The notes beneath the pieces are model-generated. The model made no database searches, was not told where the DNA came from, and saw only the letters and a program-made list of their open reading frames with translations. 41,297 nucleotides of DNA from Acinetobacter phage APK86, in the sequence record MZ936314.1. The stretch is one strand, 5' to 3'. The position numbers and the translations under genes were made by a program. Below, piece by piece: positions 1 to 41,297 of the stretch; the first letter of the stretch is position 1, and the number at the start of each line of letters is the position of its first letter.

Positions 1-383
1 TCTCCCACCTAACCCGCCCCGCTTACCCCGTGTACCACCTCTACAGAGGAATTTCTAGGAACTCTCTTATCGAGAGTCCTTATCATCCTTCCTCATCTTA
101 TAGTATGGGTAGTTCAGACCTACATATAGTAGTATGAAGAACAGTATCAATAGTACTATGAGTATTACATTCATAACGGTATTCCTTATCAACCTTATGG
201 AATGCATCTTATCAATTATCTTATCAGTTGTCTACACCTTTCTTAATATATTTATATATAACGTCACTCTTCGAGTGTACAGTGCTAGGAATATCACTTA
301 GCAGTACTTATCAACTACACTTATCAACATATATAGGAAGGTTCTAGGTTCTTTCTCTGAGCGTCTGTATTGGTTCGGTAGCT
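1..383. repeat. Left direct terminal repeat (DTR) of the phage genome; its 383 bp are identical to 40915..41297
   Basis: Direct comparison: bases 1..383 are reproduced exactly at 40915..41297. T7-like phages carry direct terminal repeats of a few hundred bp. The repeat contains the short palindrome ACTCTC-TTATC-GAGAGT at about 65..85. Confidence 0.9.
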
Positions 384-815
384 TGCCTCTATATCGTTCT
401 ACTCTTGCCTCTATTGTCTTTCTACCTACTGCCTCTATGTTCTTTCAGTTCATGCCTCTATTGTTTTGCCTCTATATCTCTAAACATAGTTATATCTTAG
501 TGCTTACCTCTTATCATCCTTATCATAGCTCTTATCACTATTCTTATATCTATATTCTTATTACTTTCTTATATAGTTCTTATCTATATGTTCTTATCAG
601 TACTTATATAGATAGTTCTATAGTTATATTCTTATATTAATATTTATAAGAAATTTATTGTAGTTCTTATTCTATTCTATTCTAGTAGTGTAACTTCAAA
701 TATTATCTATATATATCAATAGCTTAATCTACCCTGAAAATAAGCTTATAAGAGTATAGAAGTACTAATATTGATTAATTTATGATCACATGAATAAATT
801 ATTTATAGAAAGTGC

Positions 816-844
816 TTGACGTATAAATCCTAACGTATTACTAT
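816..844 (+). promoter_or_regulatory. Host sigma70-type early promoter: TTGACG, 17-bp spacer, TACTAT
   Basis: TTGACG at 816-821, a 17-nt spacer, and TACTAT at 839-844. It lies in a non-coding AT-rich leader about 85 nt upstream of the first ORF (930). Confidence 0.55.
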
Positions 845-929
845 GCACTCATACCAAGCGATGATGAGTCCTTGAGTTACTCTTTAAAGTATTTATTCAT
901 TAGTTCTTATCAGTGTATCAATCAATACA

Positions 930-1148
930 GTGGTGAACACTATGAGACAATTAGCAGATCATATCAATAATACATACCTATCGAAAGATGTACACGCTGA
1001 TGGTAAGTTATGGGTTATATTTAATCATGATGGTAAAGACTACCAACGAGAGGTTAAGTTCAAACCGTTTAGTAATTTCCCAATCGAGTACGTTAATTTC
1101 AAGGGTAAGCAGTACCAAGTGAATACTGTTAAGAGTGCATCGGCTTAA
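930..1148 (+). CDS. Early hypothetical protein (72 aa)
   Basis: ORF directly downstream of the sigma70-like promoter. It has an ATG start and sits in the position of the first early gene of a T7-like phage. Confidence 0.5.
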   Translation: MVNTMRQLADHINNTYLSKDVHADGKLWVIFNHDGKDYQREVKFKPFSNFPIEYVNFKGKQYQVNTVKSASA

Positions 1149-1196
1149 GGCTGATACACTGATAAGAATTAAATTGAATAAATATGAAATTAAGTG

Positions 1197-1225
1197 TTGA
1201 CAACGGAATCAAACATGATTAAGAT
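1197..1225 (+). promoter_or_regulatory. Host sigma70-type early promoter: TTGACA, 17-bp spacer, TAAGAT
   Basis: Consensus -35 TTGACA at 1197-1202, a 17-nt spacer, and TAAGAT at 1220-1225. A roughly 400-nt non-coding leader follows before the next ORF (1642). Confidence 0.55.
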
Positions 1226-1641
1226 GGCAACCATAGCAAATAAGCTAGGCTAGAGACAGAAGCTTCTAAGAGGTAGACGTTGAAGGTGAATCGTAAGGCA
1301 GTAGCAAGCCGTTAATGATGTAATGTGCTACATAGGTGGTGTAAGGTAGACCGGAACAAATTACCTGAGCGGTGAATCCCGTTATCGAGCCGATATTCGA
1401 TAGATGTACTAAGTCCTTTAAGGATAAACTTATTACTTGTGTAGTAAGCTCTTATCGAACTAGGCTTTAAGGCGTTAAGTCTTTTGATTAAATCCACTAT
1501 CTATCTTATGCTTGAGCAATATGTAAGTCTCATTAAGACCTTGATAGATAGTTAAGGATTTATATAGTTGTATTGGTATAGGGTCTCGTACTCACAACCG
1601 ATACAACGCTTATAAATCTTTCTAACCACAACTACCGTAAG

Positions 1642-2160
1642 GTGAACACTATGAATCTATTAATCACTGTTGAAGATATTAACAAAGCAATCGCATCTAT
1701 CTCTAAGCGTGGTAAGCAATTAGACAACGACATACACGTTGCTGGTGTTAGTTGTCTTAAACACTGTGATGCACACGGTGATAGCACTTTGTTGGATAAG
1801 CTAGTTCAAGCTATGCCTAAAGGTTCACGTAAAGCAGCGTTCTGTGAGTGGGCTTTAGCGTATGGTAATGTTCGTATGCTTGACCGTGAGAATAAAGCTG
1901 ATAAGAGCGCTATCGAACAAGGTCGATTGTTCGCTAAGGATAAATCTAAAACTTATGATGAGGCAGGTGCCATTGCTAACCATTGGGTAGATTTTAAACC
2001 TGAACCAGACCTGTTAATGACTTTCGACGTACATGCTCAAGTGGCAGCGCTTATTAGCAAGTACAATAAAGCGATTAACAAAGGCGTGGATATTGAAGGT
2101 AAAGCGGATGCAGCCAAAGAGTTGCGTACATTGTTAAACCAATTGGAAGTTGAGGTGTAA
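1642..2160 (+). CDS. Early hypothetical protein (172 aa)
   Basis: Long ORF. GGTG..ATG context. I recognise no motif. Confidence 0.6.
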   Translation: MNTMNLLITVEDINKAIASISKRGKQLDNDIHVAGVSCLKHCDAHGDSTLLDKLVQAMPKGSRKAAFCEWALAYGNVRMLDRENKADKSAIEQGRLFAKDKSKTYDEAGAIANHWVDFKPEPDLLMTFDVHAQVAALISKYNKAINKGVDIEGKADAAKELRTLLNQLEVEV

Positions 2161-2536
2161 CATGGAACCTAGTATTAAACAACTACAAGACACTATCGCA
2201 CAACTTAAAGAAGCGTTAGTGAATTGGAACTACGTTGTATCACAAGATGGATGTACAGTCCAATTACCTATCACCAAGTTGAGTGTAAACGCTTTGCGTG
2301 GTCTATGCTCTACATTCTTTGGGGATTATCCTAATTGGTTTGTTGATGAAATGTGGGACCAGTTAAAGAATCCAGAAGGTACGTGGTTATACCCTGTCGG
2401 AGGTCGGGAAGAATTCTATACTTATCTTAACCGATGGGCTAACCCTAAGCGTAAGGCGTTAGCTGAACGTTGTATCCCTTACTTACAAGCTAAACTCGAA
2501 GCTGCATTGCTTAAGGAAGGTGACGCATGTTCTTAG
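2150..2536 (+). CDS. Early hypothetical protein (128 aa)
   Basis: ORF overlapping the stop of the upstream gene, which suggests translational coupling. No motif recognised. Confidence 0.55.
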   Translation: MRCNMEPSIKQLQDTIAQLKEALVNWNYVVSQDGCTVQLPITKLSVNALRGLCSTFFGDYPNWFVDEMWDQLKNPEGTWLYPVGGREEFYTYLNRWANPKRKALAERCIPYLQAKLEAALLKEGDACS

Positions 2537-2640
2537 GATTACCTTTTCACTTCTGGTACGGTGTATGTTTAGCTACACTTGTTGTTGTATTGGCTGAAAT
2601 TGCAGCACGACAAAAGGGTAAACACTATGACAATACTTGA
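2527..2640 (+). CDS. Small hydrophobic protein (37 aa, MFLGLPFHFWYGVCLATLVVVLAEIAARQKGKHYDNT)
   Basis: Hand-translated. The ATG at 2527 overlaps the upstream stop at 2534-2536. It encodes a single predicted transmembrane helix. The ORF is below the 60-aa cut-off of the supplied track. Confidence 0.3.
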   Translation: MFLGLPFHFWYGVCLATLVVVLAEIAARQKGKHYDNT

Positions 2641-2713
2641 GCAAGTCTTTGTATTCTCTTTATGTATAGCTGCTGGATGCATCCTCTCTTATTTTATCTG
2701 TAAGGATCGTTAA
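2627..2713 (+). CDS. Small hydrophobic protein (28 aa, MTILEQVFVFSLCIAAGCILSYFICKDR)
   Basis: Hand-translated. Its stop at 2711-2713 lies 1 nt before the ATG of the next gene (2715), which suggests coupling. It has a single TM-like segment. Confidence 0.3.
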   Translation: MTILEQVFVFSLCIAAGCILSYFICKDR

Positions 2714-2714
2714 T

Positions 2715-3311
2715 ATGTCACATATAATCTATGGTATCGAACCTATCATGACTGTAATTGCACAGTGTCTTGAAGAAACCTTGTTATTACAACAAGGGCA
2801 GTACCCTATACACTATTCAGCTAATGCGGAAGAAGTCCCTAGTACGGGTAAACAAGTGCATGCCATGTGGTTATGTGCCCATAACTTTGGTTCACCTTTC
2901 CTTGTGTATAGCGGTGCTAACGATGCAGATAAGTTATATTTAAGCCCACAAGTAAACTTACTGTATCGTGCTGTACATGATCATGATCACGCATTTGCTT
3001 ACGAGCTTGGTCGTGGTACAACTAAGTACGAAGACGAACGTTATCTTAACTGCCTAATGGCTAAACGATGTTATGAGTTTGCTTTAGCTAATAAAGATGT
3101 TGTGTTAGCTATGCAAGTGTTCTTTATAATGTACCATGATACTGTGGGGCAGGTAGAGTACTTTAAAGAGAAAGGTACTTTCTGTGAAGATCAGCGTGCT
3201 GAAACAACACGAAGACTAGATGAGTGTGCAGGTTATCGTGCATTAAAACAAGGGCGTAATCGTGTTGCTAAAGCGTATATGTTAGGTTATATGGGGCAAT
3301 GTGGGTTATGA
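2715..3311 (+). CDS. Early hypothetical protein (198 aa)
   Basis: Long ORF. It contains an HDHDH stretch but no motif I can assign. Confidence 0.6.
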   Translation: MSHIIYGIEPIMTVIAQCLEETLLLQQGQYPIHYSANAEEVPSTGKQVHAMWLCAHNFGSPFLVYSGANDADKLYLSPQVNLLYRAVHDHDHAFAYELGRGTTKYEDERYLNCLMAKRCYEFALANKDVVLAMQVFFIMYHDTVGQVEYFKEKGTFCEDQRAETTRRLDECAGYRALKQGRNRVAKAYMLGYMGQCGL

Positions 3312-3409
3312 AAGGCGTACTTACAACTGGTTTATTCTGCTTAACTTATGTGGTATTGTCTGCATACGAGTGGTTAGTTACTACTAGCAAGGAAGAACAT
3401 GATCTCTAA
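3308..3409 (+). CDS. Small hydrophobic protein (33 aa, MKGVLTTGLFCLTYVVLSAYEWLVTTSKEEHDL)
   Basis: ATGA start/stop overlap with the upstream gene, and overlap with the next small ORF. TM-like segment. Confidence 0.3.
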   Translation: MKGVLTTGLFCLTYVVLSAYEWLVTTSKEEHDL

Positions 3410-3569
3410 TATTATTGTTGGGCTATTTCTGCTACATTACTTCTTAGGTGCAGCCTTCTGCTTTGCTGCTTGGGTGTTACCTATATCAAGTACAGCAAAA
3501 TTCTACACATTCTTATACTTAATTCTAGCTATTCCTGTGTTTGCATGGTTAGCTAACAAATACGCATAG
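3399..3569 (+). CDS. Small membrane protein (56 aa, two hydrophobic segments)
   Basis: AGGAAG ribosome-binding site 4 nt upstream of the ATG at 3399. Hand-translated to MISNIIVGLFLLHYFLGAAFCFAAWVLPISSTAKFYTFLYLILAIPVFAWLANKYA. Better supported than the minus-strand ORF 3503..3730 that overlaps it. Confidence 0.4.
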   Translation: MISNIIVGLFLLHYFLGAAFCFAAWVLPISSTAKFYTFLYLILAIPVFAWLANKYA

Positions 3570-3577
3570 GTGATATT

Positions 3578-3976
3578 ATGGACGTAAGACTTCAACAAGT
3601 TATTGAACAGTACAAAGATAAGACCACACCGATTCGCTTGTTCTATATGGATGATGACGGTACTGATTGGTTGGAAGAAAGTGGTTGTATAGGTTATGTT
3701 ATTTATCCACAAGGTGCGGTATCTGCCCATGACTTTGAATTAGTAGGCGCTGGGACTGTACTGCATAATGCAATCGGTAAGGTTGTTGATGTGCAGACTG
3801 GACGTATTCTATATCAGCATGGGAGCTACCAGAATCCGAACTTAAAAGTAGTGGGTAGTCATCTACGGGGTTGGGAAATCAGACATCCTGACGGACGTAT
3901 GGTAGCGTTCTATCGCACAAAAGGACCAGCTACCCGCTTAGCTAACTACCTAAACGGTGTGACTAACTCAATCTAG
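3578..3976 (+). CDS. Hypothetical protein (132 aa)
   Basis: ORF with a GGTG..ATG context. No motif recognised. Confidence 0.55.
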   Translation: MDVRLQQVIEQYKDKTTPIRLFYMDDDGTDWLEESGCIGYVIYPQGAVSAHDFELVGAGTVLHNAIGKVVDVQTGRILYQHGSYQNPNLKVVGSHLRGWEIRHPDGRMVAFYRTKGPATRLANYLNGVTNSI

Positions 3977-4046
3977 TATATTTATAGCAGCATTCTATAT
4001 GGATGCTGTTAGTAAGTATTCTCAACAACTCTAAAGGAGTTAAACA

Positions 4047-4526
4047 ATGACTAAACGTAACGCTTATCCTGTTGGTAAATTTGATAATGTAGAGTGGAAT
4101 GGTAATCCTATCTATAATCACAAAGTGGAGCAGGTACTCCGTGCTGTGTTAGTACCTGATGCTGGTGTTAATAATGTTAATGCATTGAGTGGCGGGTTTA
4201 CTTACAACCAACAACCTACGGACCATGTTCGTGTAGGTAAAAGTACTGTGCGTGGTTGGTGCTTTGAACCTACAACAAACAGCTTCTTAATTCGCTTAGG
4301 TATTAAACCGAGTGCTCTGTTACTACGATTAGCTCAACAACATCTTAATGGTGTGATGTTGCTACGTGAACAAGGTGATGATCTATTTATCCCATTCGCT
4401 GCGTTGTATCAAGCTGCATACCTAGCAGTATTTAAACCTAAGTTACTTAATAAAGAACTCAATGAGTATGTTAGCAAACACGGTACACCTAAACATTTCG
4501 CTGTAGAGGTAAAAGGAGCTAAATAA
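4047..4526 (+). CDS. Hypothetical protein (159 aa)
   Basis: AAAGGAG ribosome-binding site upstream of the ATG. Confidence 0.6.
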   Translation: MTKRNAYPVGKFDNVEWNGNPIYNHKVEQVLRAVLVPDAGVNNVNALSGGFTYNQQPTDHVRVGKSTVRGWCFEPTTNSFLIRLGIKPSALLLRLAQQHLNGVMLLREQGDDLFIPFAALYQAAYLAVFKPKLLNKELNEYVSKHGTPKHFAVEVKGAK

Positions 4527-4527
4527 G

Positions 4528-4929
4528 ATGACTACTAAAAACAAATATCCTGATTTCTGTGTTGCTAACTATTCACCTGAACACTTTGAGGCTACTAAGA
4601 AAGTGTTAGCGGATTGCGGTATTGAGTTACGTTACTTAATGCCACAGGAAGATTATAAACCCCAGTATGACCCTGATAACCCTAAAGGTATTCGAGTTAA
4701 AGGTAAAGTTGCTACTGTGGCTGTTACTGATGATGGTTTTGAACAGGCTAAGGCAGGGACTCCACTTACAATCAAAACTCGAAACATCTATCGACATGTA
4801 GGTAAACTAAACATCTTTGATAGTGCTGAACTTAAAACGTTGGTTAAATACACACCGAAAGGTATAAAGACATCACTGTTTAAGAGGTTTTTAATTACCA
4901 TTAAGGCTATCATCAATCACTTTCGTTAA
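4528..4929 (+). CDS. Hypothetical protein (133 aa)
   Basis: AAAGGAG ribosome-binding site. Packed 1 nt after the upstream stop. Confidence 0.6.
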   Translation: MTTKNKYPDFCVANYSPEHFEATKKVLADCGIELRYLMPQEDYKPQYDPDNPKGIRVKGKVATVAVTDDGFEQAKAGTPLTIKTRNIYRHVGKLNIFDSAELKTLVKYTPKGIKTSLFKRFLITIKAIINHFR

Positions 4930-4939
4930 TAGGTAGAAT

Positions 4940-5107
4940 ATGTTAATTAAAGGTTATAGTGTTACACAAGCTTATGTTGATGAGCTTCAAGAACTAACTA
5001 ACTATGAGCAGCGCAAGCGTGAACAACGTGAGCGTAAGAATATTGTCAAAGAGCGTAAGTTAGATCGTCGCTCTAAGCGGGAGGCTAAACGAAATGCGTG
5101 GGCATAG
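4940..5107 (+). CDS. Small highly basic protein (55 aa, rich in R, K, E and Q)
   Basis: Hand-translated to MLIKGYSVTQAYVDELQELTNYEQRKREQRERKNIVKERKLDRRSKREAKRNAWA. It fills the otherwise empty 4930..5093 gap and overlaps the next ORF start. Confidence 0.35.
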   Translation: MLIKGYSVTQAYVDELQELTNYEQRKREQRERKNIVKERKLDRRSKREAKRNAWA

Positions 5108-5300
5108 CTATACAGTGGGTGATCGGGTTTACCGTACACTGCCAAGCTCTAATCTACCGAAAGGTACTAAAGGTACTGTTGGACATGGTCGTATGTATTC
5201 CAAGACTGAAGGTCAACTGGTGAAGGTAAACTTTGATAATGGAAGTATATGGTATTGTTCAGATAAATTTATTAAACCTTTAGTGAGGGTAGTCGGATGA
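5094..5300 (+). CDS. Small protein, paralog 1 of a tandem triplet (68 aa)
   Basis: It shares the pattern VG-RV....G.-GTV(G)........V.F..G with the two ORFs that follow. Confidence 0.55.
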   Translation: MRGHSYTVGDRVYRTLPSSNLPKGTKGTVGHGRMYSKTEGQLVKVNFDNGSIWYCSDKFIKPLVRVVG

Positions 5301-5500
5301 AATTCGGTAAAGTTAAAGTAGGTATGCGTGTTCGTATTAAGAATAATCCTAATGGTAATCTTGCTGAACCAGAGAACTTAGGTGCGGTAGGTACAGTTAG
5401 TTATAAAGAACCAGCAACTTATACTGGTAAGTTAACAGTACTAATCAATTTTGGAAATAATGTTATTGATTGGGTTAATCACAAGAGCTTAAGAAGGTGA
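5297..5500 (+). CDS. Small protein, paralog 2 of a tandem triplet (67 aa)
   Basis: The same conserved pattern (KVGMRVRI...GAVGTV...LTVLINFGN). ATGA overlap with paralog 1. Confidence 0.55.
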   Translation: MKFGKVKVGMRVRIKNNPNGNLAEPENLGAVGTVSYKEPATYTGKLTVLINFGNNVIDWVNHKSLRR

Positions 5501-5507
5501 AAGACTA

Positions 5508-5732
5508 ATGAAAGTTAAGAACTGTAAAGTAGGTCAACGTGTTGAAATTAAACACTTAATTGGTTTTGATAGCAACCACTTCAATAAAGGTGATACAGGC
5601 GTTATCAGCCGTATCGACGACACAGGCGATGTTGAGCTACATGTGTATGTACAATTTGATGGTAGCGACGAGACTTGTGAACGCTTCACATACCCTAGTC
5701 AACTACGTAAGGTGAAAGGAGATGCTTCATAG
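5508..5732 (+). CDS. Small protein, paralog 3 of a tandem triplet (74 aa)
   Basis: KVGQRVEI...GDTGVI...VQFDG pattern. Confidence 0.55.
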   Translation: MKVKNCKVGQRVEIKHLIGFDSNHFNKGDTGVISRIDDTGDVELHVYVQFDGSDETCERFTYPSQLRKVKGDAS

Positions 5733-6522
5733 CAGCGAATGGCTGGATCAAGCTAAGGCTGTACCATTAGGACAGAAGCGTCGTGTATATCATGGTGCAG
5801 AATGTACTAAAGCAATGGATGTTTACAACAACTTAGACAGTTGGTCATGTTGGTGTCACCGTTGTCATGAAGGTGGTAAGGTCTGGAAGACACACTTAGC
5901 TAGGGAGACGCTAGTTCAGGCACCTGCCATTAGGCACTTCTTGAACTATAAGCAGCTATGTACGCTTACAGAATTAGCGGAGAAGCACGAAAGCAAGTAC
6001 AGTCGTATGGTTGTACTACTTCAAAGCAAAGGTGTCTCTACGACGATTCTACAGCCATATAGACCTATGTATAATTTAGAGGATGATCGGTTAGTGTTTA
6101 GCTTTGAAGGTGTTGACATTGGTAGAGATTGTACTGGTGTCTCACCTATGAAATGGTACAAATACTATAAAGAGAATCCTAAGAGCTTTGTGTACTTGCA
6201 AGGCAAAAATCAATTCGATACACGAGAGCCTGTGGCTGTTACTGAGGATTTGTTTTCAAGTATGAAGATAAAACATTACTCAGGTTGCAGTGCGATGTGT
6301 TTACTAGGAACTAATTTTGAAGATGAAAAGCTTAACTTCTTGTCATCCCGTAAGCCAGTTCTTGCATTGGATGGCGATCTTGCAGGACAAACTGCTGAAA
6401 GGCTTATTAGTAATCGTCTTAGTCTTTTTGGTGTACCTTACTTGCGGGTCAGTATTCCTTTAGGTCTTGACCCTAAAGATTTAAAACCTAACGAAATCAA
6501 ACAATTATTTGGAGACATCTAA
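5722..6522 (+). CDS. DNA primase (zinc ribbon plus TOPRIM domain)
   Basis: Zinc-ribbon motif CWCHRCHEGG near the N-terminus. A TOPRIM-like acidic motif LALDGDLAG lies near the C-terminus. It occupies the position of the separate primase gene of phiKMV-like phages. Confidence 0.7.
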   Translation: MLHSSEWLDQAKAVPLGQKRRVYHGAECTKAMDVYNNLDSWSCWCHRCHEGGKVWKTHLARETLVQAPAIRHFLNYKQLCTLTELAEKHESKYSRMVVLLQSKGVSTTILQPYRPMYNLEDDRLVFSFEGVDIGRDCTGVSPMKWYKYYKENPKSFVYLQGKNQFDTREPVAVTEDLFSSMKIKHYSGCSAMCLLGTNFEDEKLNFLSSRKPVLALDGDLAGQTAERLISNRLSLFGVPYLRVSIPLGLDPKDLKPNEIKQLFGDI

Positions 6523-6833: not shown

Positions 6834-7153
6834 TGTTATATAACGGTATTAATGTGAACGTAAACCCTGAACAGCACGCGGTAATTACCCAATTCCTGAA
6901 TGAATGTGGTTTACCAAACACATTCACGTGGCTAACCGAACAACATTCTGCGGAAAGTAATATCGAAATTTGGTGGCATACGGCTGATGCTAAGAAATCC
7001 TTCTCAGGTACAGACGGTCCAAGTCTGTATGGGAATGGCAGTCGTAACGTCGTGACAGAAGGTAGCTACGATGCTAAATCTCCTGATGATTTTATTAACG
7101 CCTTCAACCACTGGAAAGAACATGGTGTACTTGATTCGGAGGTATTTAAGTAA
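6833..7153 (+). CDS. Hypothetical protein (106 aa)
   Basis: Coupled ORF (TAATG overlap). Confidence 0.5.
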   Translation: MLYNGINVNVNPEQHAVITQFLNECGLPNTFTWLTEQHSAESNIEIWWHTADAKKSFSGTDGPSLYGNGSRNVVTEGSYDAKSPDDFINAFNHWKEHGVLDSEVFK

Positions 7154-10408: not shown

Positions 10409-10520
10409 ATGGTGGAATGCTCTTGAAGGTTGGCAACAAACACTACTGTTTATATCTATAGTACTGTTCCTAATTAGTCGTTAATTGGGTATTGTAAGTA
10501 ACTGATTTAGTAATTAGTTA

Positions 10521-29148: not shown

Positions 29149-29160
29149 TATGGAGGGTAT

Positions 29161-32046: not shown

Positions 32047-32055
32047 GAGGATATT

Positions 32056-35000
32056 ATGGCTGGACTTTTTACAGGAACGCAAGAATCTAAATTGTTACCA
32101 GAGGTTCAGCCTGAACTACCTATTGTTCCTGCTGGTAATGTACCTAAAATTAAACATGTTATAAACACACAGCCACAAGGTCAAGCTGATGAAGTTGACC
32201 TTACTACCGAGACTCAGCAGTTAGAGAGCTTAGAGCGAGAAACACCTCCATCTATATTGGATACAGCTATCGCAGGATTTGCGCCTACTGGACGAGATTG
32301 GTTACGTAGTGGTATGGATAAATTAAGATATGACCGTGACCCTAACTTTACACCTGACGAATTTACAGATCAGTTCTTTAAAGATTGGGGTATGCAGCAT
32401 GCAGACGAAGCGGAATACCTTAACAAAGCAGTAAACTATGAAGATTGGAAAAGTCGTACAGAACGTATCGTGTCTAAACGTGAAGATGCTAAAGCATTAG
32501 CAGAGAACCCTATTACAGGTATCGCAGCTAGTCTTATTGACATTGACTTACCCTTAGCAGCTATCCCTTATTTAGGTTGGGCAGCTAAAGGTTCACGTAT
32601 GGCTCAGATGGGTGTACGTGCAGCACAGGCAGCTACAGCAGCAGGTGCAGCTTATGGTGTAAACGTAGCATTAGCGGATCAATCTATTCGATCTGAGGAC
32701 GAACGTTTTATGGATTCCATTACGTTCGGTCTAGGTGCTGGTTTACGTGCTATTAAACCTACACAACATCTTGATGATGCTATCAGTGCTGAACTTAAAA
32801 GTTTAGGTTCTACAGATCATCTTATTGAACCACATGTACAACAATCTTTAGAGGCTGCTAAAGAGGATATTATTAAATCTACATCTATGCCTATTAGTAC
32901 ACCGAGTGGTGCACCTTCCGATATAATTAAAAAACATGGTTGGTTAGCAGAGTTATCTAGTTCTTATGATAAGCTTTACTATTTGACTCAAGGCGATAAC
33001 TCAACACTGGTTAATCGTTTATTAACAGGTGTACATAATAATGGTGATGATGTAGCTACAGCACAAGCAGCTTACTTAAATAACTACTCATGGCGTTTAG
33101 CTGGTTTAGAGAAAGACTTAAGTGATGCTGTAGCTGAAATTACATTGGTTAAACCTAACCCTATTACTCGAAATAATGGGTCATATGGTAGAGCCACACA
33201 AGAAACAATGGAGAAGTTCCAAGAGTCTATGCAACGCTTAGACGCTAAAGTCTTAGAATTAACAGAGCAATTAGGTCAAGTACCTTCTGATGCAACTATC
33301 AAGCAACTTATTAATACTATCGAACCACATCCAAGTATGCAACGTGTTATGCGAACCTATATTGATTCGGGATTTGCTACACGCGTATTAGATGATGCTA
33401 AAGCGGTAGGATTCTTAGAAGCAGAAGGTGCGGATCAGATTGTACGTCGTAGTACTTATATGCCTGTACGTCATAGTTATGATCGTATATTAGATGCAGT
33501 CGAGAATCGTAAGCTAGGTTCATGGGATGATATTGCTCATTTCTATGGCAAGCAGATTACCCGCATCTATCCTGAATTGTTAAACCCTAAAGGCAACTTC
33601 AAATTAACTGAGAAGCAGGTTGGTCAGCACTTCTTACAAACACAACGTGACGCTGCTCGGAATTTATCTGAGGTAGCAACCACAGGTATGACTAAAGAAC
33701 AGATTCATGATGTACTTACCCGTGCAGGTTTAAGTAACGAGGATGCTAGTGGTGTAACTGCTCGTATGTTTGAAGCTTCTAAAGATGCACAAGGTCAGCC
33801 TAAGAACCTACGTAAGCGTATGGATTGGGATTGGAATATGACGTATAAGTCTAGTACTGGTAAAACATTCGGTATGAAAGACCTAACAGATTCTAGTACC
33901 TTTGGTAATCTTGAAGAGTATGCCCGTCGTATGGCTGCTCGTAACGGTCTAGCACAGTACGGTATTAAGTCTGAGGCAGAGTTGGATAACTTACTAACTT
34001 CATACTTAGATAAACTACCTAAAGGGCAAGACCCACAGAAAGCACGTAAGTTCTTTCAAGCGGTACGTGATGACTTATTAGGGCGTCCTATCGGAGAGGC
34101 TGCACCAGAAGCTTTACGCACATCTCAAGCAGTAGCAGATATGATGCTATTAGCTAACTCAGGCTTATACGGTATTATCGACGTAGCAACTCAGGTCTAT
34201 AAGACTGGTGTAGTACGTAGTTTTCCACATATCTACCGTGGTCTAAAGACTGCTGTTAAAGGTATGAAAGGGTTTAGTACTACTGAGGCTAAGACGTTGG
34301 AGGACATATTTACAGGTAAACTTATTGCACCTTCACGATGGAAGAACTTCATGAGTCACTACTCAGATGGTTATTCCGTATCTAACGGTATACATGAGGC
34401 TGCTCAGTACTACAGCCAGAGTACACGTTTCCTAAACTTATCTGAGTATCTTAAACGATTCCAGATTGGTATGTTAATGGGTGTGTATGGTGATGTACTA
34501 CGTGGTGTTGCTAATGGTAATGCTCGTGATATTAAATACATGAAGACTAAGATGAAGGTATCTGATGAACTGCTTAGCGCTATCCAAACTGAATGGAAAG
34601 CTAAGGGTGGTAATATCGACTCTTGGTCTAACGCTACTCGTGTTGCTCTTGAACAGAAGATTTTCAACGAGTCTGATAACCTAGCATTCAACATCCAGAA
34701 GGGTGAGATACCTAGTATCCTTGAGCATAGTACAATGGGTAAGGTTGTCTTCCCATATATGCGTTATGCATTCGCTATGCAACAGAAGGTATTACGTCGT
34801 ACATTAAACCGTGATGGTGCAGTAGGTCTTGCTTTACTCATGGCAGCACAAATGCCAGCAGCTATGTTAGTAGGTGCAGCAATTAACGTGCGTAATGGTA
34901 AAGAACCTGATGAAGACCTTGCTAAGATGACAGTTAAGACTATGAGTGCTTTAGGTTCTTGGAACTACCCATTAGAGATGCTTATTGGAGGTGTAGATCA

Positions 35001-35154
35001 AAGCTCAGTAACAGCTTTAGCTCCGTTAGGTAAGACATGGAATTTTGTGAGTGAATTGGCTACAGGAGAGCCAGACTTAATTACGCTAAAGAAAAACAGT
35101 ATTGCTAACTCAGCAGTATTGTTAGATGCTTTGGCACTAGCTTTTGAGGATTGA
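32056..35154 (+). CDS. Internal virion protein C
   Basis: 1032 aa, by position and size, like T7 gp16 or phiKMV gp36. Confidence 0.55.
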   Translation: MAGLFTGTQESKLLPEVQPELPIVPAGNVPKIKHVINTQPQGQADEVDLTTETQQLESLERETPPSILDTAIAGFAPTGRDWLRSGMDKLRYDRDPNFTPDEFTDQFFKDWGMQHADEAEYLNKAVNYEDWKSRTERIVSKREDAKALAENPITGIAASLIDIDLPLAAIPYLGWAAKGSRMAQMGVRAAQAATAAGAAYGVNVALADQSIRSEDERFMDSITFGLGAGLRAIKPTQHLDDAISAELKSLGSTDHLIEPHVQQSLEAAKEDIIKSTSMPISTPSGAPSDIIKKHGWLAELSSSYDKLYYLTQGDNSTLVNRLLTGVHNNGDDVATAQAAYLNNYSWRLAGLEKDLSDAVAEITLVKPNPITRNNGSYGRATQETMEKFQESMQRLDAKVLELTEQLGQVPSDATIKQLINTIEPHPSMQRVMRTYIDSGFATRVLDDAKAVGFLEAEGADQIVRRSTYMPVRHSYDRILDAVENRKLGSWDDIAHFYGKQITRIYPELLNPKGNFKLTEKQVGQHFLQTQRDAARNLSEVATTGMTKEQIHDVLTRAGLSNEDASGVTARMFEASKDAQGQPKNLRKRMDWDWNMTYKSSTGKTFGMKDLTDSSTFGNLEEYARRMAARNGLAQYGIKSEAELDNLLTSYLDKLPKGQDPQKARKFFQAVRDDLLGRPIGEAAPEALRTSQAVADMMLLANSGLYGIIDVATQVYKTGVVRSFPHIYRGLKTAVKGMKGFSTTEAKTLEDIFTGKLIAPSRWKNFMSHYSDGYSVSNGIHEAAQYYSQSTRFLNLSEYLKRFQIGMLMGVYGDVLRGVANGNARDIKYMKTKMKVSDELLSAIQTEWKAKGGNIDSWSNATRVALEQKIFNESDNLAFNIQKGEIPSILEHSTMGKVVFPYMRYAFAMQQKVLRRTLNRDGAVGLALLMAAQMPAAMLVGAAINVRNGKEPDEDLAKMTVKTMSALGSWNYPLEMLIGGVDQSSVTALAPLGKTWNFVSELATGEPDLITLKKNSIANSAVLLDALALAFED

Positions 35155-35159: not shown

Positions 35160-37322
35160 ATGAACATACTACGATCATTTACAGAGACGGTGGTGACTAC
35201 ACCTACAGATACTTTCCCTATCAGTTTTGAATATGATGAGAAATATGATGCTGTACACGTCTTTCTTGATGACGTAGCAGTTGAAGATTTGGGGTACATT
35301 GTATCCCAAGTCAACGCTGTTACTTTAAAGATTGAACCAGCCATTCCATCTGGTACTGTACGTATAGAACGTGAGACCGATATTGATAAGATGTTGTATA
35401 TCTTTGATGCAGGTGCATTGTTTATTGATCAAAACGTGGATGCGGATTTTAGACAAATCGTACACTCTCAACAAGAGGTACGAGACGGTTTTATTAAATT
35501 ACGTGGTGATGTGCTACCACTAGTACACGGTTTAGAAGAAGCCCTTAAAGCCGTTAATGAAGCTGCTAGTGCTGCTAAAGACGCTGCGGACGCTGCTGTT
35601 GAAGCTGCCGAAGATGCTTCTGATGCGCTCGCTAAAATCAGTGGTGCTATAATCGCTATAGACAATATTCAGGATTTACTTGCCCTAGCTAACCCTAAGC
35701 AAGGTCAAGTTGTACATGTACGATCATATCATGCTGGATGGGCTATGGTTGAACCTTATCGACCTTTAGGTGGTGGTACATTCTACTACGACACTACTAA
35801 AGCAAGTGTTAATAACGGTGTGTATATCTTTAATGGTTGGGTACGACTCATTGCTGGCTCTACGTTATCTGTACATGATGCTGGTGCTAGAGGGGATAAG
35901 ACTACAAGCGATTCAGTAGCGATTAATAAGTTGATGCAATCTCTATGGGATTTAGGTTTACATTCAAACGGGCAGTTGAATCCAGATTCATTCACTATTA
36001 CTTTTGAAGGTAATTTAGAGTATTACTTAGACGAACCTATCTTACAAGCTCCGAACACTACACTACGAGGTAATGGGTGTACTCTGTGGGGTAATGCTCG
36101 TACTAACAATGGTATTCATACCGCTTATTGGGTTAATGGTGTATTGACAGATTTAACGCCTAAACCGCTAGAAACACAAATGCTATTCCGTACACATATC
36201 GAAGGGTTCTTATTTAAAGAGTTTAAGTACTCCATGAACTTACGAGGTATGACCTTTGGTTGTTCAGTTGTGGATTGTTCTACACGGGGTGGTATTCGAC
36301 ACATCAACTCTATTGAACATTACTTCCTACATGTGGTGCGTAATAAAGCTGAGGCTTGTGAGTTAGGTTACTACTTCTCAACATTCAGCGGTATGCTACA
36401 GTTCCAAACTGTATCAGCATCTAACTGTACACTAGGCTTCCATTTCGCTTCTGCTGCACAAGCAGTACGTATCAGTAACATTGCTGCTGAGCAGTGTACT
36501 AATGGTATATTTATTGAAGGTTCTGGTAATACAGGTGGTATTTCAATTCGAAGCTCTTACTTTGAAGGTATCTCAGGTAAGGCGGTTGAATTATCGACTA
36601 ATACATATGGCTCATGCCGTATTGGGGATAGCTTTGTAAATATCACAGGTACGTTAGCTAAAGAAACTGGTAACTGTAAATTCATCATTGAGGACGATAA
36701 CTGGTTGCAGTCTTATGGTGTATTGTTGGATGCATCTACATCTACTACATCAAGATCGAAGACCATTCAGAACCCAGTTCAACATAACGGGGGTAGTTCT
36801 GCACCTAACTCACCTAATGGTACAAATCTAGATAAGAACTTGTTTAACGGTGGTTCTTGTCGTTTATGGGCGTGTAATACTCATGAGCAGATTATCGCTC
36901 AGAAGGACACTAACTCAGGTAATACAGTTGCGTTGCACAGACACTACTTCTCTGCAATCCCATATCAGTATTATGGTCATCAAGGCACACCTCCTAGTAA
37001 TGTAGTACCATTCTGCTCGCACACTGCTAATGGTGGTAGTGCTGTTACAAATATTGTGATTACTACATCTATTACAGCCAATAATTTTAGTACAGGTATG
37101 TTTAACTTAGAGTTAACACACGGTGGTACTAATATTACTACGCTAGGTGGTAGATTCTACGGTACTAATATGGTTAAGGACGTAGCTATTACGAACGGTA
37201 GTGCCAACACTACACTAACAGTTAGTGGTGCCAACGTTGGTGGGGTACTTGTAATTACTGTTGGAAACTTAACAGGCGATTCTTCTAATTACCGTTGTCG
37301 AGGACTTATTAAACTTATTTAA
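35160..37322 (+). CDS. Tailspike; probable polysaccharide depolymerase with a right-handed beta-helix
   Basis: About 720 aa. The N-terminal ~130 aa is adaptor-like. The remainder is rich in G, N, T and S with short repeats, typical of pectate-lyase-fold tailspikes. It is the last virion gene before the lysis cassette. The ATG at 35160 is preferred over the TTG at 35151. Confidence 0.65.
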   Translation: MNILRSFTETVVTTPTDTFPISFEYDEKYDAVHVFLDDVAVEDLGYIVSQVNAVTLKIEPAIPSGTVRIERETDIDKMLYIFDAGALFIDQNVDADFRQIVHSQQEVRDGFIKLRGDVLPLVHGLEEALKAVNEAASAAKDAADAAVEAAEDASDALAKISGAIIAIDNIQDLLALANPKQGQVVHVRSYHAGWAMVEPYRPLGGGTFYYDTTKASVNNGVYIFNGWVRLIAGSTLSVHDAGARGDKTTSDSVAINKLMQSLWDLGLHSNGQLNPDSFTITFEGNLEYYLDEPILQAPNTTLRGNGCTLWGNARTNNGIHTAYWVNGVLTDLTPKPLETQMLFRTHIEGFLFKEFKYSMNLRGMTFGCSVVDCSTRGGIRHINSIEHYFLHVVRNKAEACELGYYFSTFSGMLQFQTVSASNCTLGFHFASAAQAVRISNIAAEQCTNGIFIEGSGNTGGISIRSSYFEGISGKAVELSTNTYGSCRIGDSFVNITGTLAKETGNCKFIIEDDNWLQSYGVLLDASTSTTSRSKTIQNPVQHNGGSSAPNSPNGTNLDKNLFNGGSCRLWACNTHEQIIAQKDTNSGNTVALHRHYFSAIPYQYYGHQGTPPSNVVPFCSHTANGGSAVTNIVITTSITANNFSTGMFNLELTHGGTNITTLGGRFYGTNMVKDVAITNGSANTTLTVSGANVGGVLVITVGNLTGDSSNYRCRGLIKLI

Positions 37323-37335: not shown

Positions 37336-37671
37336 TTGAACATCATAGATCAGGTCTATGCAGTTCTGATCTATGTATGGTCAGGCTTAGATAAATTGAT
37401 TGTGGGTGCTGCTGCTACATCTTTTGTAGTGGCACTGCTACGAACTAAGAAAGAGGATAATAAGTTCTCTTTTATTGAAGCATTACTTTGCGGTATCTTT
37501 ACAGCTATCGCATTAGTAGGTATGAGCTTCTTAGGAGCATTAACAGGTATCATTGTACCTGAAACATTAACTGCTGGTGCTGCTCACGTAGTAGCTGGCT
37601 TTATTGGTTGGTACGGTACAGTGCGAACTATGAAATATTTAGAAGGAAAGGTTTCAAATGATTCTGACTAA
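37336..37671 (+). CDS. Holin
   Basis: 111 aa with 2-3 hydrophobic helices and a charged C-terminus. TTG start 6 nt after an AAGGAGAG ribosome-binding site. It overlaps the endolysin start. Confidence 0.6.
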   Translation: MNIIDQVYAVLIYVWSGLDKLIVGAAATSFVVALLRTKKEDNKFSFIEALLCGIFTAIALVGMSFLGALTGIIVPETLTAGAAHVVAGFIGWYGTVRTMKYLEGKVSNDSD

Positions 37672-38215
37672 AGACGGTTTTAATATTATCCGTAATGAAT
37701 TATTCGGAGGTAAGTTAGATCAGGCTCAGGTAGATGCAATAATCTTTATTGTGACTTACTGTACCCAATACGATTTAACTTATCCAGAGGCAGCTTATTT
37801 ATTAGCTACCGTTTACCATGAGACGGGTTTACCGAGTGGTTATCGAACTATGCAGCCGATTAAAGAAGCTGGTTCTGATAGCTACCTTCGATCTAAGAAG
37901 TACTATCCGTATATTGGCTATGGTTATGTACAACTAACTTGGAAGGAGAACTACGAACGTATTGGTAAACTTATTGGAGTTGATCTGATTAAGAATCCTG
38001 AGAAAGCGCTAGAACCTTTAATTGCTATTCAGATTGCTATAAAAGGCATGTTGTATGGTTGGTTCACAGGTGTTGGATTCCGACGTAAACGTCCAGTTAG
38101 TAAGTACAACAAACAACAGTACGTAGCTGCTCGTAATATCATTAATGGGAAAGATAAGGCTGAACTTATAGCGAAGTACGCTATTATCTTTGAACGTGCT
38201 CTGCGGAGCTTATAG
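37658..38215 (+). CDS. Endolysin (lysozyme-like, GH19/chitinase-fold)
   Basis: 185 aa. From memory it closely resembles the 185-aa endolysins of Acinetobacter podophages of the LysAB2 type. It directly follows the holin. Confidence 0.65.
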   Translation: MILTKDGFNIIRNELFGGKLDQAQVDAIIFIVTYCTQYDLTYPEAAYLLATVYHETGLPSGYRTMQPIKEAGSDSYLRSKKYYPYIGYGYVQLTWKENYERIGKLIGVDLIKNPEKALEPLIAIQIAIKGMLYGWFTGVGFRRKRPVSKYNKQQYVAARNIINGKDKAELIAKYAIIFERALRSL

Positions 38216-38273: not shown

Positions 38274-38582
38274 ATGGCAGGTAAGAAAACAGGGGCTAGT
38301 GTTAGCCGTCTGTGCTTATTGCATGAGTTATTGGTAGATATGTTCATTAAAGATATTAAAGATGCTATCGAAGGTGATTACCCTTTAGCATCTGCTGATA
38401 AGAACGTTATCGTTACGTTCCTAAAGAATGAAAGTATCACAGCCACACCTGATGCAGATGGTATGGAGAAACTAAAAGAAGATTTGAAGGACCTATCAGA
38501 AGCACAACGTGCAAAGGTAGATGCTTTAGTAACGCAAGTTGAATCAGGTCAATTCGATGATCTGTTAGGACCTATACAATAA
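38274..38582 (+). CDS. Terminase small subunit
   Basis: 102 aa, immediately upstream of the large terminase. Ribosome-binding site TAGGAGGG. Confidence 0.55.
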   Translation: MAGKKTGASVSRLCLLHELLVDMFIKDIKDAIEGDYPLASADKNVIVTFLKNESITATPDADGMEKLKEDLKDLSEAQRAKVDALVTQVESGQFDDLLGPIQ

Positions 38583-38591
38583 GGAGTTGTT

Positions 38592-40529
38592 ATGATTGAT
38601 GCGACGTTCCGAGAACGCTTTAAAAGATTACGGGCACATGTTGCCCAACACAATGATAGACCAGAGTTAATCCCTAAAGAAGATCGTGAAATGTTCGCAT
38701 TAATGTTTGCAGGGTTATTCCTGAGTTTTCGAGACTTTGCTGAGTTAGGTATGGCTTATCTCGGGTTTAAGATGTCGGAGATTCAGGAGGACATTGCAGA
38801 CTACATGCAACATGGTTATAAGTACCGTATGGTGCAGGCACAACGTGGGCAGGCTAAGAGTACCTTAGCTGCTTTATACTGTATCTGGCGTCTTATACAG
38901 CGTCCTAAAGACCGCTGTTTGATTGTATCTGCTGGTGGTGATCAGGCTGACTCTATCGCGCTGATTATTACACGTATCATTAACCAATGGGATATTTTAT
39001 GTTGGATGCGTCCAGATACGACCAGAGGTGACAGGGATAGTGCTAAGAATTATGATATTCACTGTGACCTTAAAGGTATTGATAAATCCGCTTCTGTATC
39101 TTCTGTAGGTATCTCTGCACAGCTAGCAGGTAAACGTGCTGACTTTTTGTTAGCAGACGATATTGAGGTTATGCGTAACTCTATGACTCAAACAGAGCGT
39201 GAGAAGTTAGCATTACAAACTCGTGAGTTCTCAGCTATCTGTATTCATGGTGACATTATGTATTTAGGTACACCGCAGACTAAAGACTCTATTTATCGTG
39301 AACTACCTCGTCGTGGTTTTAGTGTTCGAGTTTGGACAGGTCGTTACCCTACAAATGAAGAATTAGAACGTTATGGTTCAGGTACAGAGATTGCACCTAT
39401 GATCATGAAACGTTTATTAGAAAATCCAGAGCTACAAACTGGCGGTGGTATCGAAGGTAATAGAGGACAACCTACTGACCCTAACCACATCGGTGAAGAA
39501 ACCCTACAATCTAAAGAGTTAGATTACGGTCCAGAAGGTTTTGCATTACAGTATATGTTAGATACAACATTATCTGATGAGATGCGTACCAAGATTAAAC
39601 TATCAGACATTCCTGTTGTGGGTACAGGTACAGATTCCGCACCAGAGGTGGTTCAGTACAAGTGTGATCCAACTACAGCGTATAAAGAATTAACACCAGC
39701 GATGACAGCCTTTCGTATGTATTGGGGTATTGGTTCTGAGAAGTCAGTACCGTTTGAACACAAGGTTATGATTATCGACCCTGCTGGTTCAGGTGGGGAT
39801 GAGATTGCATTCGCTACAGGTGCAGCTACTAACTCCTATATATATCTACTATCAGTAGGTGGTTTTAAGGGTGGTACAAAAGAAGAAAACTTAAATAAAG
39901 TTATCATGAAGATGGTTACGTCTGGCATTAAAGATTTAGATATCGAACGTAACATGGGTCATGGTACTGTTACTCAGTTAGTTGTAGCTCAAATTGAGAA
40001 GTTGCGTTTAAAGGCTTCTAAAGGCTCACAGGATGAAGATTTCCTTGAACTACTACAATCCTATGGGGTTACCCATTCAGAGCTTAACAGCGCGCTCTCA
40101 GGCGTTGCTGTGAATGATTATTTCGTTACTACTCAGAAAGAGCGTCGTATCATTGATACTATCTCTCCTGTGACTCGTCGTCATAAATTAGTAGTGACCA
40201 GCTCAGCTATTCAAGAAGATTGGGAATACTGTTTACAACACCCTATGGAAAAGCGTAATCAATATAGCTGTTTCTATCAATTAGGTAACATTACTTATGA
40301 TAGAGGTAGTCTGGTACATGATGACCGAGCTGACTGTGTACAACGGTTAGTAGAACGTCTATCACCCTTCCTAGCTAAAGATGATGAGGCTGGTGCAGTT
40401 AAACGTCGTGAGGAGGAGATTGCAGAGTGGCGACGTAATCCTATGGGTTATACACATGGTAAGTTCGCTAACACAGGTATGCGTAGAGGTTCGGGAACTA
40501 CTAAGAAGTTCGGAGGTCGCCGTAAATGA
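38592..40529 (+). CDS. Terminase large subunit
   Basis: 645 aa. It is the last large gene of the genome, as in phiKMV- and Friuna-like phages. Walker B-like motif LLADDIEV. Confidence 0.7.
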   Translation: MIDATFRERFKRLRAHVAQHNDRPELIPKEDREMFALMFAGLFLSFRDFAELGMAYLGFKMSEIQEDIADYMQHGYKYRMVQAQRGQAKSTLAALYCIWRLIQRPKDRCLIVSAGGDQADSIALIITRIINQWDILCWMRPDTTRGDRDSAKNYDIHCDLKGIDKSASVSSVGISAQLAGKRADFLLADDIEVMRNSMTQTEREKLALQTREFSAICIHGDIMYLGTPQTKDSIYRELPRRGFSVRVWTGRYPTNEELERYGSGTEIAPMIMKRLLENPELQTGGGIEGNRGQPTDPNHIGEETLQSKELDYGPEGFALQYMLDTTLSDEMRTKIKLSDIPVVGTGTDSAPEVVQYKCDPTTAYKELTPAMTAFRMYWGIGSEKSVPFEHKVMIIDPAGSGGDEIAFATGAATNSYIYLLSVGGFKGGTKEENLNKVIMKMVTSGIKDLDIERNMGHGTVTQLVVAQIEKLRLKASKGSQDEDFLELLQSYGVTHSELNSALSGVAVNDYFVTTQKERRIIDTISPVTRRHKLVVTSSAIQEDWEYCLQHPMEKRNQYSCFYQLGNITYDRGSLVHDDRADCVQRLVERLSPFLAKDDEAGAVKRREEEIAEWRRNPMGYTHGKFANTGMRRGSGTTKKFGGRRK

Positions 40530-40619
40530 CAGAGCAAGAAATTAAAGAAAGGCTATCTAAACATTGGTTAGTCATTAACACTGCTAAGCAGTTAGTACTA
40601 CTCGTAAAGGAGAAATTAA

Positions 40620-40823
40620 GTGAAAGTAAATCTATCAGCACTAAAGAAGATCAAGCACAGTGATGCAGTAAATGTAATTGGTACTCTAGGAACCATTGTA
40701 GAGAGCGCTAAGGCGGTTAATTCTGTTCAGGAGTACAAAGGTAAGGATAAGGTTAATAAAGGGCTATCAGGAGCTTCTAAAGCGCTAGATATTGCTGCTG
40801 TTATTCTTAACATTCTAAAGTAG
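40620..40823 (+). CDS. Hypothetical protein (67 aa, GTG start)
   Basis: AAGGAG ribosome-binding site 7 nt upstream of the GTG. No TM segment or lipobox. Confidence 0.35.
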   Translation: MKVNLSALKKIKHSDAVNVIGTLGTIVESAKAVNSVQEYKGKDKVNKGLSGASKALDIAAVILNILK

Positions 40824-40914
40824 TTTACTAAGGACTGTTAGTGACTTATGTGGGAAAGGTTCTCTTGCAAGTTATAGTTAAATCCAAAATTTGACATATA
40901 TTTGTGAAAGGGTC

Positions 40915-41297
40915 TCTCCCACCTAACCCGCCCCGCTTACCCCGTGTACCACCTCTACAGAGGAATTTCTAGGAACTCTCTTATCGAGAGTCCTTATCAT
41001 CCTTCCTCATCTTATAGTATGGGTAGTTCAGACCTACATATAGTAGTATGAAGAACAGTATCAATAGTACTATGAGTATTACATTCATAACGGTATTCCT
41101 TATCAACCTTATGGAATGCATCTTATCAATTATCTTATCAGTTGTCTACACCTTTCTTAATATATTTATATATAACGTCACTCTTCGAGTGTACAGTGCT
41201 AGGAATATCACTTAGCAGTACTTATCAACTACACTTATCAACATATATAGGAAGGTTCTAGGTTCTTTCTCTGAGCGTCTGTATTGGTTCGGTAGCT
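40915..41297. repeat. Right direct terminal repeat (identical to 1..383)
   Basis: Exact 383-bp identity with the left end. Confidence 0.9.

Follow-up and report, generated by a model that had tools for sequence, protein, structure and literature searches.

The sequence record MZ936314.1 (Acinetobacter phage APK86; 41,297 bp), which in its whole length is referred to below as the window, almost certainly represents the complete linear genome of a virulent Acinetobacter podophage of the genus Friunavirus, running from one physical end to the other and bounded by a direct terminal repeat of 383 bp. The assignment to Friunavirus, the gene content and the gene order are ordinary for this well-studied genus, and the main features have already been published for its members. 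An original prediction, made from the nucleotide sequence, had listed most of these features, and each of them has been found at the place given for it (Table 1). Beyond that list the genome contains a DNA polymerase gene split by a gene for an HNH endonuclease, a second HNH gene and a tandem duplication of 439 bp at 20305-21182.

Taxonomic position of the phage

The genome was searched in two halves by megablast against records deposited up to August 2025. The two halves retrieved 165 and 169 matching records, respectively, all of them Acinetobacter phages and nearly all at 90-95% identity; the left 25 kb was covered to at least 80% in 131 records, and the annotated records among those examined are classified as Friunavirus. 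No record combined full coverage with at least 99% identity in the searches with both halves, and the megablast summaries for the collection searched contained none that combined full coverage with at least 95% identity. Whole-genome similarity was obtained by a VIRIDIC-style calculation against five relatives and amounted to 88.4% for APK87, 86.0% for Dino, 83.1% for Fri1, 82.3% for AS12 and 80.8% for MD-2021b. The ICTV draws the genus line for tailed phages at ~70% whole-genome nucleotide similarity, and the species line lies at 95%; all five values lie above the former, and since the best of them stays under the latter, the phage probably represents a new Friunavirus species.

The other properties that delimit the genus point the same way. 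Length, guanine plus cytosine (G+C) content of 39.2% and repeat length fit the ~40-42 kb, ~39% G+C and ~340-420 bp of Friunavirus, for whose genomes a G+C range of 39.05-39.40% has been reported (PMC8092837). The genes follow the order characteristic of the group: early genes, primase, helicase, ligase, DNA polymerase, exonuclease, endonuclease VII, phosphoesterase, deoxynucleoside monophosphate (dNMP) kinase, RNA polymerase, structural genes, tailspike, holin, endolysin, and small and large terminase. A gene-by-gene map against the annotated genomes of APK87 and AS12 is fully colinear, with most proteins 85-100% identical. The Acinetobacter phage of Friunavirus type that had been anticipated was thus recovered by the BLAST-type search and by gene order alike.

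At the level of the order Autographivirales (formerly the family Autographiviridae), the phage encodes its own single-subunit T7-type RNA polymerase and carries its genes all on one strand. These traits, the terminal repeats and the T7-like tail and internal virion proteins are common throughout the order, and in principle they would also suit a T7-type (Studiervirinae-like) phage or a member of the genus Phikmvvirus. Such an identity has next to no probability. The RNA polymerase gene is situated at 18-20 kb, not at ~3 kb, and its product is 96-99% identical to Friunavirus polymerases as against ~35% for KP34-type, 31-32% for phiKMV-type and 26-28% for T7-type enzymes; the nucleotide matches are exclusively Acinetobacter phages; and, unlike in phiKMV, the terminase genes come after the lysis genes and the dNMP kinase gene lies ahead of the RNA polymerase gene. 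The T7-type or Phikmvvirus identity is ruled out by the nucleotide matches, the whole-genome similarity and the RNA polymerase identities.

The term 'phiKMV-type', under which the genome had been filed, is correct as a description of layout, the RNA polymerase gene being located 3' of the DNA-metabolism genes and adjoining the structural genes, and wrong as a statement of membership. In the current taxonomy Friunavirus is placed in Autographivirales, Autoscriptoviridae, Beijerinckvirinae; phiKMV stands in Autoscriptoviridae too, but in the subfamily Krylovirinae. No Pseudomonas phage occurs among the nucleotide matches, and the RNA polymerase is 31-32% identical to those of phipa2 and SPCG.

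Terminal repeats and physical ends of the genome

The beginning and the end of the window are identical over exactly 383 bp, no other prefix length gives identity with the suffix, and an end identity of this length is beyond chance. When the ends of APK87, AS12 and the window are aligned, TCTCCCACCTAACC opens and GGTTCGGTAGCT closes each of the six repeat copies, with several indels distinguishing the interiors of the repeats (383 bp here, 381 bp in APK87 and 338 bp in AS12). The same end motifs are found at positions 1 and 378 of Fri1, which has a 378-bp repeat, and they bound the single collapsed repeat copy of MD-2021b and Dino, both deposited in circular or permuted form. The repeats of AS11 and AS12 were recognised through read coverage and confirmed by outward-primed Sanger sequencing (PMC5537680), that of AbpL (400 bp) has been found by sequencing of DNA ends (PMC12960631), and repeats of 381-417 bp have been described for eight APK phages (PMC8092837). 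Judged by these sequence comparisons, the 383-bp repeat marks where the genome physically ends and is no assembly overlap, because its boundaries fall on bases that are conserved in the genus and Sanger-verified in AS12.

It is very improbable that the repeat is an assembly artefact, i.e. an overlap left by the opening of a circular or permuted assembly. Some public Friunavirus assemblies, MD-2021b and Dino among them, are indeed circular or permuted with one collapsed copy, and the window comes without reads against which the repeat could be checked; an arbitrary cut, however, would miss the conserved TCTCCCACC... start and ...GGTTCGGTAGCT end, which coincide with ends verified by experiment in AS12 and annotated in Fri1 and APK87. 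At 383 bp the repeat also lies within the published range of 338-417 bp and does not have the length of a typical k-mer overlap. The direct terminal repeats claimed from the sequence were accordingly upheld, both in their exact identity and in boundaries that match APK87, AS12 and Fri1 base for base.

Several public Friunavirus assemblies, OV298668.1 and OZ038330.1 among them, are circular or permuted with a single collapsed repeat copy, and the ends of the Dino record cut through the large terminase gene. The end motifs TCTCCCACCTAACC and GGTTCGGTAGCT would let permuted Friunavirus assemblies be re-oriented.

Coding strand and lifestyle

The forward open reading frames (ORFs) match phage protein families, and those with a homologue are colinear with AS12 and APK87. 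No PHROG family match was obtained for the eight longest minus-strand ORFs or for two ORFs in the repeat and the adjoining spacer. Credible genes are consequently confined to the plus strand, as had been stated before. Neither integrase nor excisionase nor repressor families were detected in any ORF by Pfam and PHROG scans, and the PHROG categories of integration/excision and of transcription regulation gave no match; the window contains no tRNA genes, and no Rfam family matched at E <=1 over its whole length. This lack of lysogeny genes, together with existing knowledge of Friunavirus, supports the strictly lytic lifestyle predicted earlier.

Several points weigh against reading the window as the complete, end-to-end genome of a new virulent Friunavirus species. 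The ends of this particular isolate are placed by comparison with relatives and not by read coverage. The full comparison covered five relatives, and one with more than 95% similarity could exist, which the megablast summaries make unlikely within the collection searched. The Acinetobacter host, the podovirus morphology and the lytic lifestyle are themselves deduced from the genome. Finally, the 439-bp duplication with its skewed second copy occurs in no other record; if it is an error, the true length is 40,858 bp.

RNA polymerase gene and transcription signals

The RNA polymerase gene lies 3' of the dNMP kinase gene and 5' of the structural block with the portal region, that is, at the end of the DNA-metabolism block, where the original prediction had put it. 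In the relatives the gene is located at ~18-21 kb and not in an early, T7-like position, which would have spoken against the original prediction, and in the phiKMV-type phage SPCG it occupies 18.2-20.6 kb. A promoter motif of 29 nt, TT(A/T)TTTGAAGTTACACT(T/A)ATAGAAGG, was found at five sites (10518, 20493, 20527, 20932 and 20966), with none expected by chance. In AS12 the three homologous sites carry an annotation as promoters of the phage RNA polymerase, and the rightward promoters of AS11 and AS12 have been confirmed by primer extension (PMC5537680).

Three tandem copies of the late promoter, as compared with two in the others, were observed at 7038-7136 of SWH-Ab-3 (IMGVR_UViG_2974614842_000001); natural variation in the number of promoters 3' of the RNA polymerase gene thus exists within the genus.

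The 439-bp tandem duplication

The duplicated unit extends from 145 nt before the stop codon of the RNA polymerase gene through the terminator and two promoters into an ORF of 65 aa. Copy 1 has the normal sequence and hardly departs from AS12. Copy 2 differs from it at 33 positions, all within its first 176 nt, the other 263 nt being identical, and there are no indels. All but one of these changes (32/33) convert G/C to A/T, so that 32 of the 60 G/C positions of the stretch are changed; no A/T position out of 116 has turned into G/C (Fisher p ~1e-14). Isolated G/C bases have been lost more often than clustered ones (23/32 vs 9/28). No other part of the genome is as AT-rich as the altered stretch, which has 12% G+C over 150 nt, and the terminator of copy 2 is destroyed (-1.7 kcal/mol). 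Elsewhere in the window the private substitutions are balanced, with 216 from A/T to G/C and 148 from G/C to A/T.

Had the unit been duplicated without change, the 65-aa ORF would run in frame into the last 47 codons of the RNA polymerase gene; an early G-to-T change in copy 2 provides a stop codon, which yields the chimeric ORF listed in Table 1. An exact-protein look-up of this chimeric ORF returned no record. The junction of the duplication is absent from all 156 matching phage records, whose alignments stop at the copy boundary, and neither the degenerate copy nor the junction was matched in IMG/VR, where Friunavirus is represented by only 11 contigs, all from isolates, so that the latter negative adds little to the former.

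Ordinary AT-biased decay was rejected as the source of the pattern in view of the 116 sites with no change from A/T to G/C, the unchanged adjoining 263 nt and the balance in the rest of the genome. A diversity-generating retroelement was likewise discarded, since the changes fall on A as well as on T and no reverse transcriptase is encoded in the genome.

It is quite possible, if somewhat short of probable, that the genome is right except for this duplication, or for the degenerate half of copy 2, and that the anomaly was produced in sequencing, library preparation or assembly; the real genome would then comprise ~40,858 bp with a single terminator and a single promoter pair. This explanation draws on the absence of the junction from every one of the related records, on the confinement of the 33 differences to 176 nt beside a run of ~20 T and on a skew towards A/T that is seen nowhere else in the genome. 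The preferential loss of isolated G/C bases resembles decay of base calling after a homopolymer more than it resembles evolution. T7-like phages recombine actively, and a perfect direct repeat of 263 bp should be unstable in them. Standard assemblers, however, are not known to attach the error-laden tail of a read in tandem to the 65-aa ORF; moreover, CGTAAG is present at both boundary sites, as would be expected for real illegitimate recombination, and the promoter copy number varies in the genus, as the triplet of SWH-Ab-3 illustrates.

An unlikely explanation is that the duplication is real and that copy 2 has been remodelled in one direction, giving rise to an element of 12-16% G+C between two promoter pairs. 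The duplicated layout recalls the primary replication origin of T7, in which tandem promoters and an AT-rich stretch lie just after the polymerase gene. If this were true, the sharply bounded one-way pattern of substitutions would indicate that a mutational or selective process so far unrecognised acts locally in a T7-like phage.

Table 1 Features of the Friunavirus genome in MZ936314.1 (coordinates refer to the 41,297-bp window)
Feature	Coordinates	Strand	Evidence and remarks
Left direct terminal repeat	1-383	+	Identical to 40915-41297; starts TCTCCCACCTAACC, ends GGTTCGGTAGCT; six CTTATCA boxes in the same orientation
AT-rich early non-coding region with more CTTATCA boxes	384-929		No ORF with a homologue; 24% G+C over 456-859
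Leftward-facing site resembling a phage RNA polymerase promoter, TTTGAAGTTACACTACTAGAATA	678-700	-	Three mismatches to the forward motif
Early gene block, ~16 small ORFs	930-5732	+	Each matches a PHROG without assigned function and AS12 or APK87 homologues
DNA primase (Toprim)	5722-6522	+	Pfam Toprim_2; 95% identical to AS12 and APK87 primases
DnaB-like replicative helicase, separate from primase	7393-8691	+	Pfam AAA_25 below curated cut-off; 99% identical to annotated AS12 helicase
ATP-dependent DNA ligase	9428-10408	+	PHROG 114; Pfam DNA_ligase_A_M
Phage RNA polymerase promoter 5' of DNA polymerase gene	10518-10546	+	Motif family; AS12 homologue annotated
DNA polymerase A, N-terminal (exonuclease) fragment, 286 aa	10658-11518	+	97.5% identical to APK87 polymerase residues 1-284; PHROG DNA polymerase
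HNH homing endonuclease (HNH_3 and AP2-like domain)	11502-11939	+	Pfam HNH_3 E = 9e-12; PHROG 99
DNA polymerase A, C-terminal (polymerase) fragment	11932-13392	+	Pfam DNA_pol_A E = 8e-33; 94.7% identical to APK87 residues 307-778
5'-3' exonuclease	14623-15579	+	PHROG 107; 88% identical to AS12 exonuclease
Second HNH endonuclease	15560-15997	+	PHROG 59, 6254; in the position of the tRNA nucleotidyltransferase of AS12, APK87 and Fri1
Endonuclease VII, metallo-phosphoesterase, dNMP kinase	15994-18023	+	PHROGs 423, 221, 139
Single-subunit T7-type RNA polymerase, 805 aa	18032-20449	+	Pfam RNA_pol E = 9.6e-76, RPOL_N; 98.9% identical to Abp1 polymerase
Tandem duplication, 2 x 439 bp	20305-21182 (20305-20743 and 20744-21182)	+	Tandem Repeats Finder (TRF), 2.0 copies
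Intrinsic terminator, 12-bp stem followed by U run	20454-20499	+	-18.4 kcal/mol, z = -5.1; AS12 homologue annotated as terminator
Tandem phage promoter pair, first set	20493-20555	+	Motif; AS12 homologues annotated
Chimeric 65-aa ORF	20562-20759	+	61 native residues, then four residues and stop from the degenerate remnant; PHROG 5394
Degenerate part of copy 2: remnant of RNA polymerase 3' end and destroyed terminator	20744-20919	+	33 changes; 12-16% G+C
Second promoter pair, duplicated	20932-20994	+	Promoter motif
Intact 65-aa ORF and 83-aa ORF	21001-21446	+	98-100% identical to AS12 gp30 and gp31
Structural block: portal, scaffold, major capsid, two small proteins, tail tubular A and B, internal virion A, B and C	21455-35154	+	95-99% identical to AS12 and APK87
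Tailspike capsule depolymerase (predicted), 720 aa, APK87 (K87) type	35160-37322	+	Pectate-lyase-like domain
Holin	37336-37671	+	Pfam Phage_holin_3_1; 100% identical to APK87 holin
Endolysin, 185 aa, glycoside hydrolase family 19 (GH19; lysozyme-like)	37658-38215	+	Pfam Glyco_hydro_19, 30 bits vs cut-off 25.5; 98.4% identical to APK87
Small terminase	38274-38582	+	Pfam DNA_Packaging_2
Large terminase	38592-40529	+	Pfam Terminase-T7_RNaseH-like
Two small ORFs (45 and 67 aa) before right repeat	40526-40823	+	PHROGs 8403, 6687
Right direct terminal repeat	40915-41297	+	Identical to 1-383

Early region and signals near the left end

By analogy with T7 and phiKMV, the non-coding region 384-929 presumably holds the early promoters for the host polymerase; a sigma-70 promoter scan of 1-1700 returned 10 sites against 8.2 expected, a number not above chance, and no terminators were found there. 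The heptamer CTTATCA occurs 31 times in the genome against ~8 expected. Eleven copies, in one orientation, lie in the first 912 nt, and six are present in each copy of the terminal repeat (the arrays span 79-912 and 40993-41240). These boxes are kept in APK87 and AS12; some of them read TTATCAACA, which is one mismatch away from the DnaA-box consensus.

The leftward-facing site at 678-700 is positioned ~300 bp inward of the left repeat in a block of ~56 nt that is invariant across six genomes. APK87, AS12, MD-2021b and Dino have the site itself in unchanged form. Fri1 shows an A-to-G change in it that is found in the forward promoters of that phage as well, i.e. the two co-vary. The paper on AS11 and AS12 describes rightward promoters only (PMC5537680), and a literature search for a Friunavirus transcription-start map or an antisense promoter gave nothing relevant. 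The site, read from 700 to 678, may be an undescribed antisense or end-directed phage promoter present throughout the genus.

Replication block and homing endonucleases

Primase and helicase are encoded by separate genes, in agreement with the original prediction. The DNA polymerase gene is interrupted by an HNH gene whose start overlaps the stop codon of the N-terminal fragment and whose stop overlaps the start of the C-terminal fragment (ATGGTTAA); compared with the intact APK87 allele, ~22 residues are different around the insertion point. The split-polymerase junction was found at 98-99% identity in 22 records, including Fri1, phiAB1 and Abp1, and the Fri1 record annotates its DNA polymerase as 'gene interrupted by HNH family endonuclease'. 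With stop and start signals that overlap, an intron would find no space, and the DNA polymerase gene is therefore regarded as a gene in two pieces. A group I intron or an intein was rejected, as the Rfam scan of the whole window remained without a match and the HNH ORF fills the gap. The enzyme would be made as two polypeptides, with a free-standing HNH gene between its exonuclease and polymerase domains.

The second HNH gene lies between the genes for the 5'-3' exonuclease and endonuclease VII, a place taken by a tRNA nucleotidyltransferase gene in most relatives. A second HNH gene in place of the nucleotidyltransferase gene has also been reported in APK32 and APK48 (PMC8092837), and both HNH arrangements are known variants in the genus. 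In the region 15200-15500 beside the second HNH gene, private substitutions are packed more densely than anywhere else in the genome, and this clustering suggests that the region is a recombination tract.

Structural, tailspike, lysis and packaging genes

The structural block encodes proteins with the Pfam domains Head-tail_con, Tube, Phage_nozzle and T7_gp14, and with PHROG matches to scaffold, major head and internal virion proteins. It is followed by the genes for tailspike, holin, endolysin and terminase in the order that had been claimed, and the endolysin of 185 aa is lysozyme-like, again as foreseen.

The tailspike shares 98.9% amino acid and 96.9% nucleotide identity with APK87_gp48. 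Other records cover at most 24% of the tailspike gene, corresponding to the conserved N-terminal part only, and an exact-protein look-up returned no record. Among 56 capsule types tested, APK87 infected a K87 strain only (PMC8092837). A K87-capsule A. baumannii is predicted as the host because the tailspike is nearly identical to the K87-specific depolymerase of APK87.

Proposed life cycle and significance

A course of infection can be proposed from the biology of T7 and phiKMV and from the work on AS11 and AS12. The left end would enter the cell first, and host RNA polymerase would transcribe the small early genes. The phage RNA polymerase would then read the TTTGAAGTTACACT(T/A)ATAG promoters 5' of the DNA polymerase gene and 3' of its own gene, driving expression of the replication genes and of the structural, lysis and packaging genes. 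Terminase would cut the concatemers, leaving the repeat at both ends of each virion DNA. The tailspike depolymerase would digest the K87-type capsule and set the host range, and holin and the GH19 endolysin would lyse the cell.

Friunavirus is among the most heavily sampled groups of therapeutic Acinetobacter phages, and the genome adds little to its basic biology. It would be the second Friunavirus with a K87-type depolymerase in the collection searched, APK87 being the only other full-gene record, and a phage with such a depolymerase would be useful for capsule-typed phage cocktails. The mutated duplication and the leftward promoter-like site offer small leads on the control of transcription and replication in the genus.

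Comparison with known systems

Among the genomes compared, APK87 (vB_AbaP_APK87, MN604239) is the closest at 88.4% and has the same gene order. Its 381-bp repeat has the same start and end bases, with interiors ~78% identical to those of the window. APK87 differs in an intact DNA polymerase gene with an HNH gene upstream, whereas here the gene is split by a different HNH gene; in a tRNA nucleotidyltransferase gene where the second HNH gene is found here; in ~1 kb more of early genes; and in a single copy of the 439-bp unit.

Fri1 (KR149290), the namesake of the genus, shares the same ends of its 378-bp repeat, the same HNH-interrupted DNA polymerase gene (junction 98.6% identical), an RNA polymerase gene preceded by the dNMP kinase gene and the succession of tailspike, holin, endolysin and terminase genes. 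It is set apart by a similarity of 83.1%, another receptor-binding part of the tailspike, the promoter variant GTTG(C/T)ACT, a retained nucleotidyltransferase gene and the lack of the duplication. AS11 and AS12 (vB_AbaP; KY268296 and KY268295) are experimentally the best-described relatives, with the same promoter motif and a terminator after the RNA polymerase gene; AS12 differs by its similarity of 82.3%, its 338-bp repeat, its intact DNA polymerase gene and its tailspike, which is 44% identical in the N-terminal part only. OV298668.1 is 80.8% similar to the window and has a different tailspike.

phiKMV and allied phages (Phikmvvirus, Krylovirinae), which are likewise placed in the family Autoscriptoviridae, have the same layout, code on one strand and carry terminal repeats, but their RNA polymerases are 31-32% identical and they have no nucleotide-level match to the window. 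Fri1-like phages have been distinguished from phiKMV by the location of the terminase genes behind the lysis genes, by a dNMP kinase gene ahead of the RNA polymerase gene and by the lack of Rz/Rz1 (PMC5537680), and the first two of these differences are seen here.

With T7 the window shares homologous portal, tail tube, nozzle, gp14-like internal protein and terminase, as well as a single-subunit RNA polymerase. T7 has promoters with a core of the CACT(T)ATAG type, direct terminal repeats and, immediately behind its polymerase gene, two phage promoters; that gene is early, at ~3 kb, and primase and helicase are fused in gp4. In the phage described here primase and helicase are separate, and its RNA polymerase is 26-28% identical to the T7-type enzymes.

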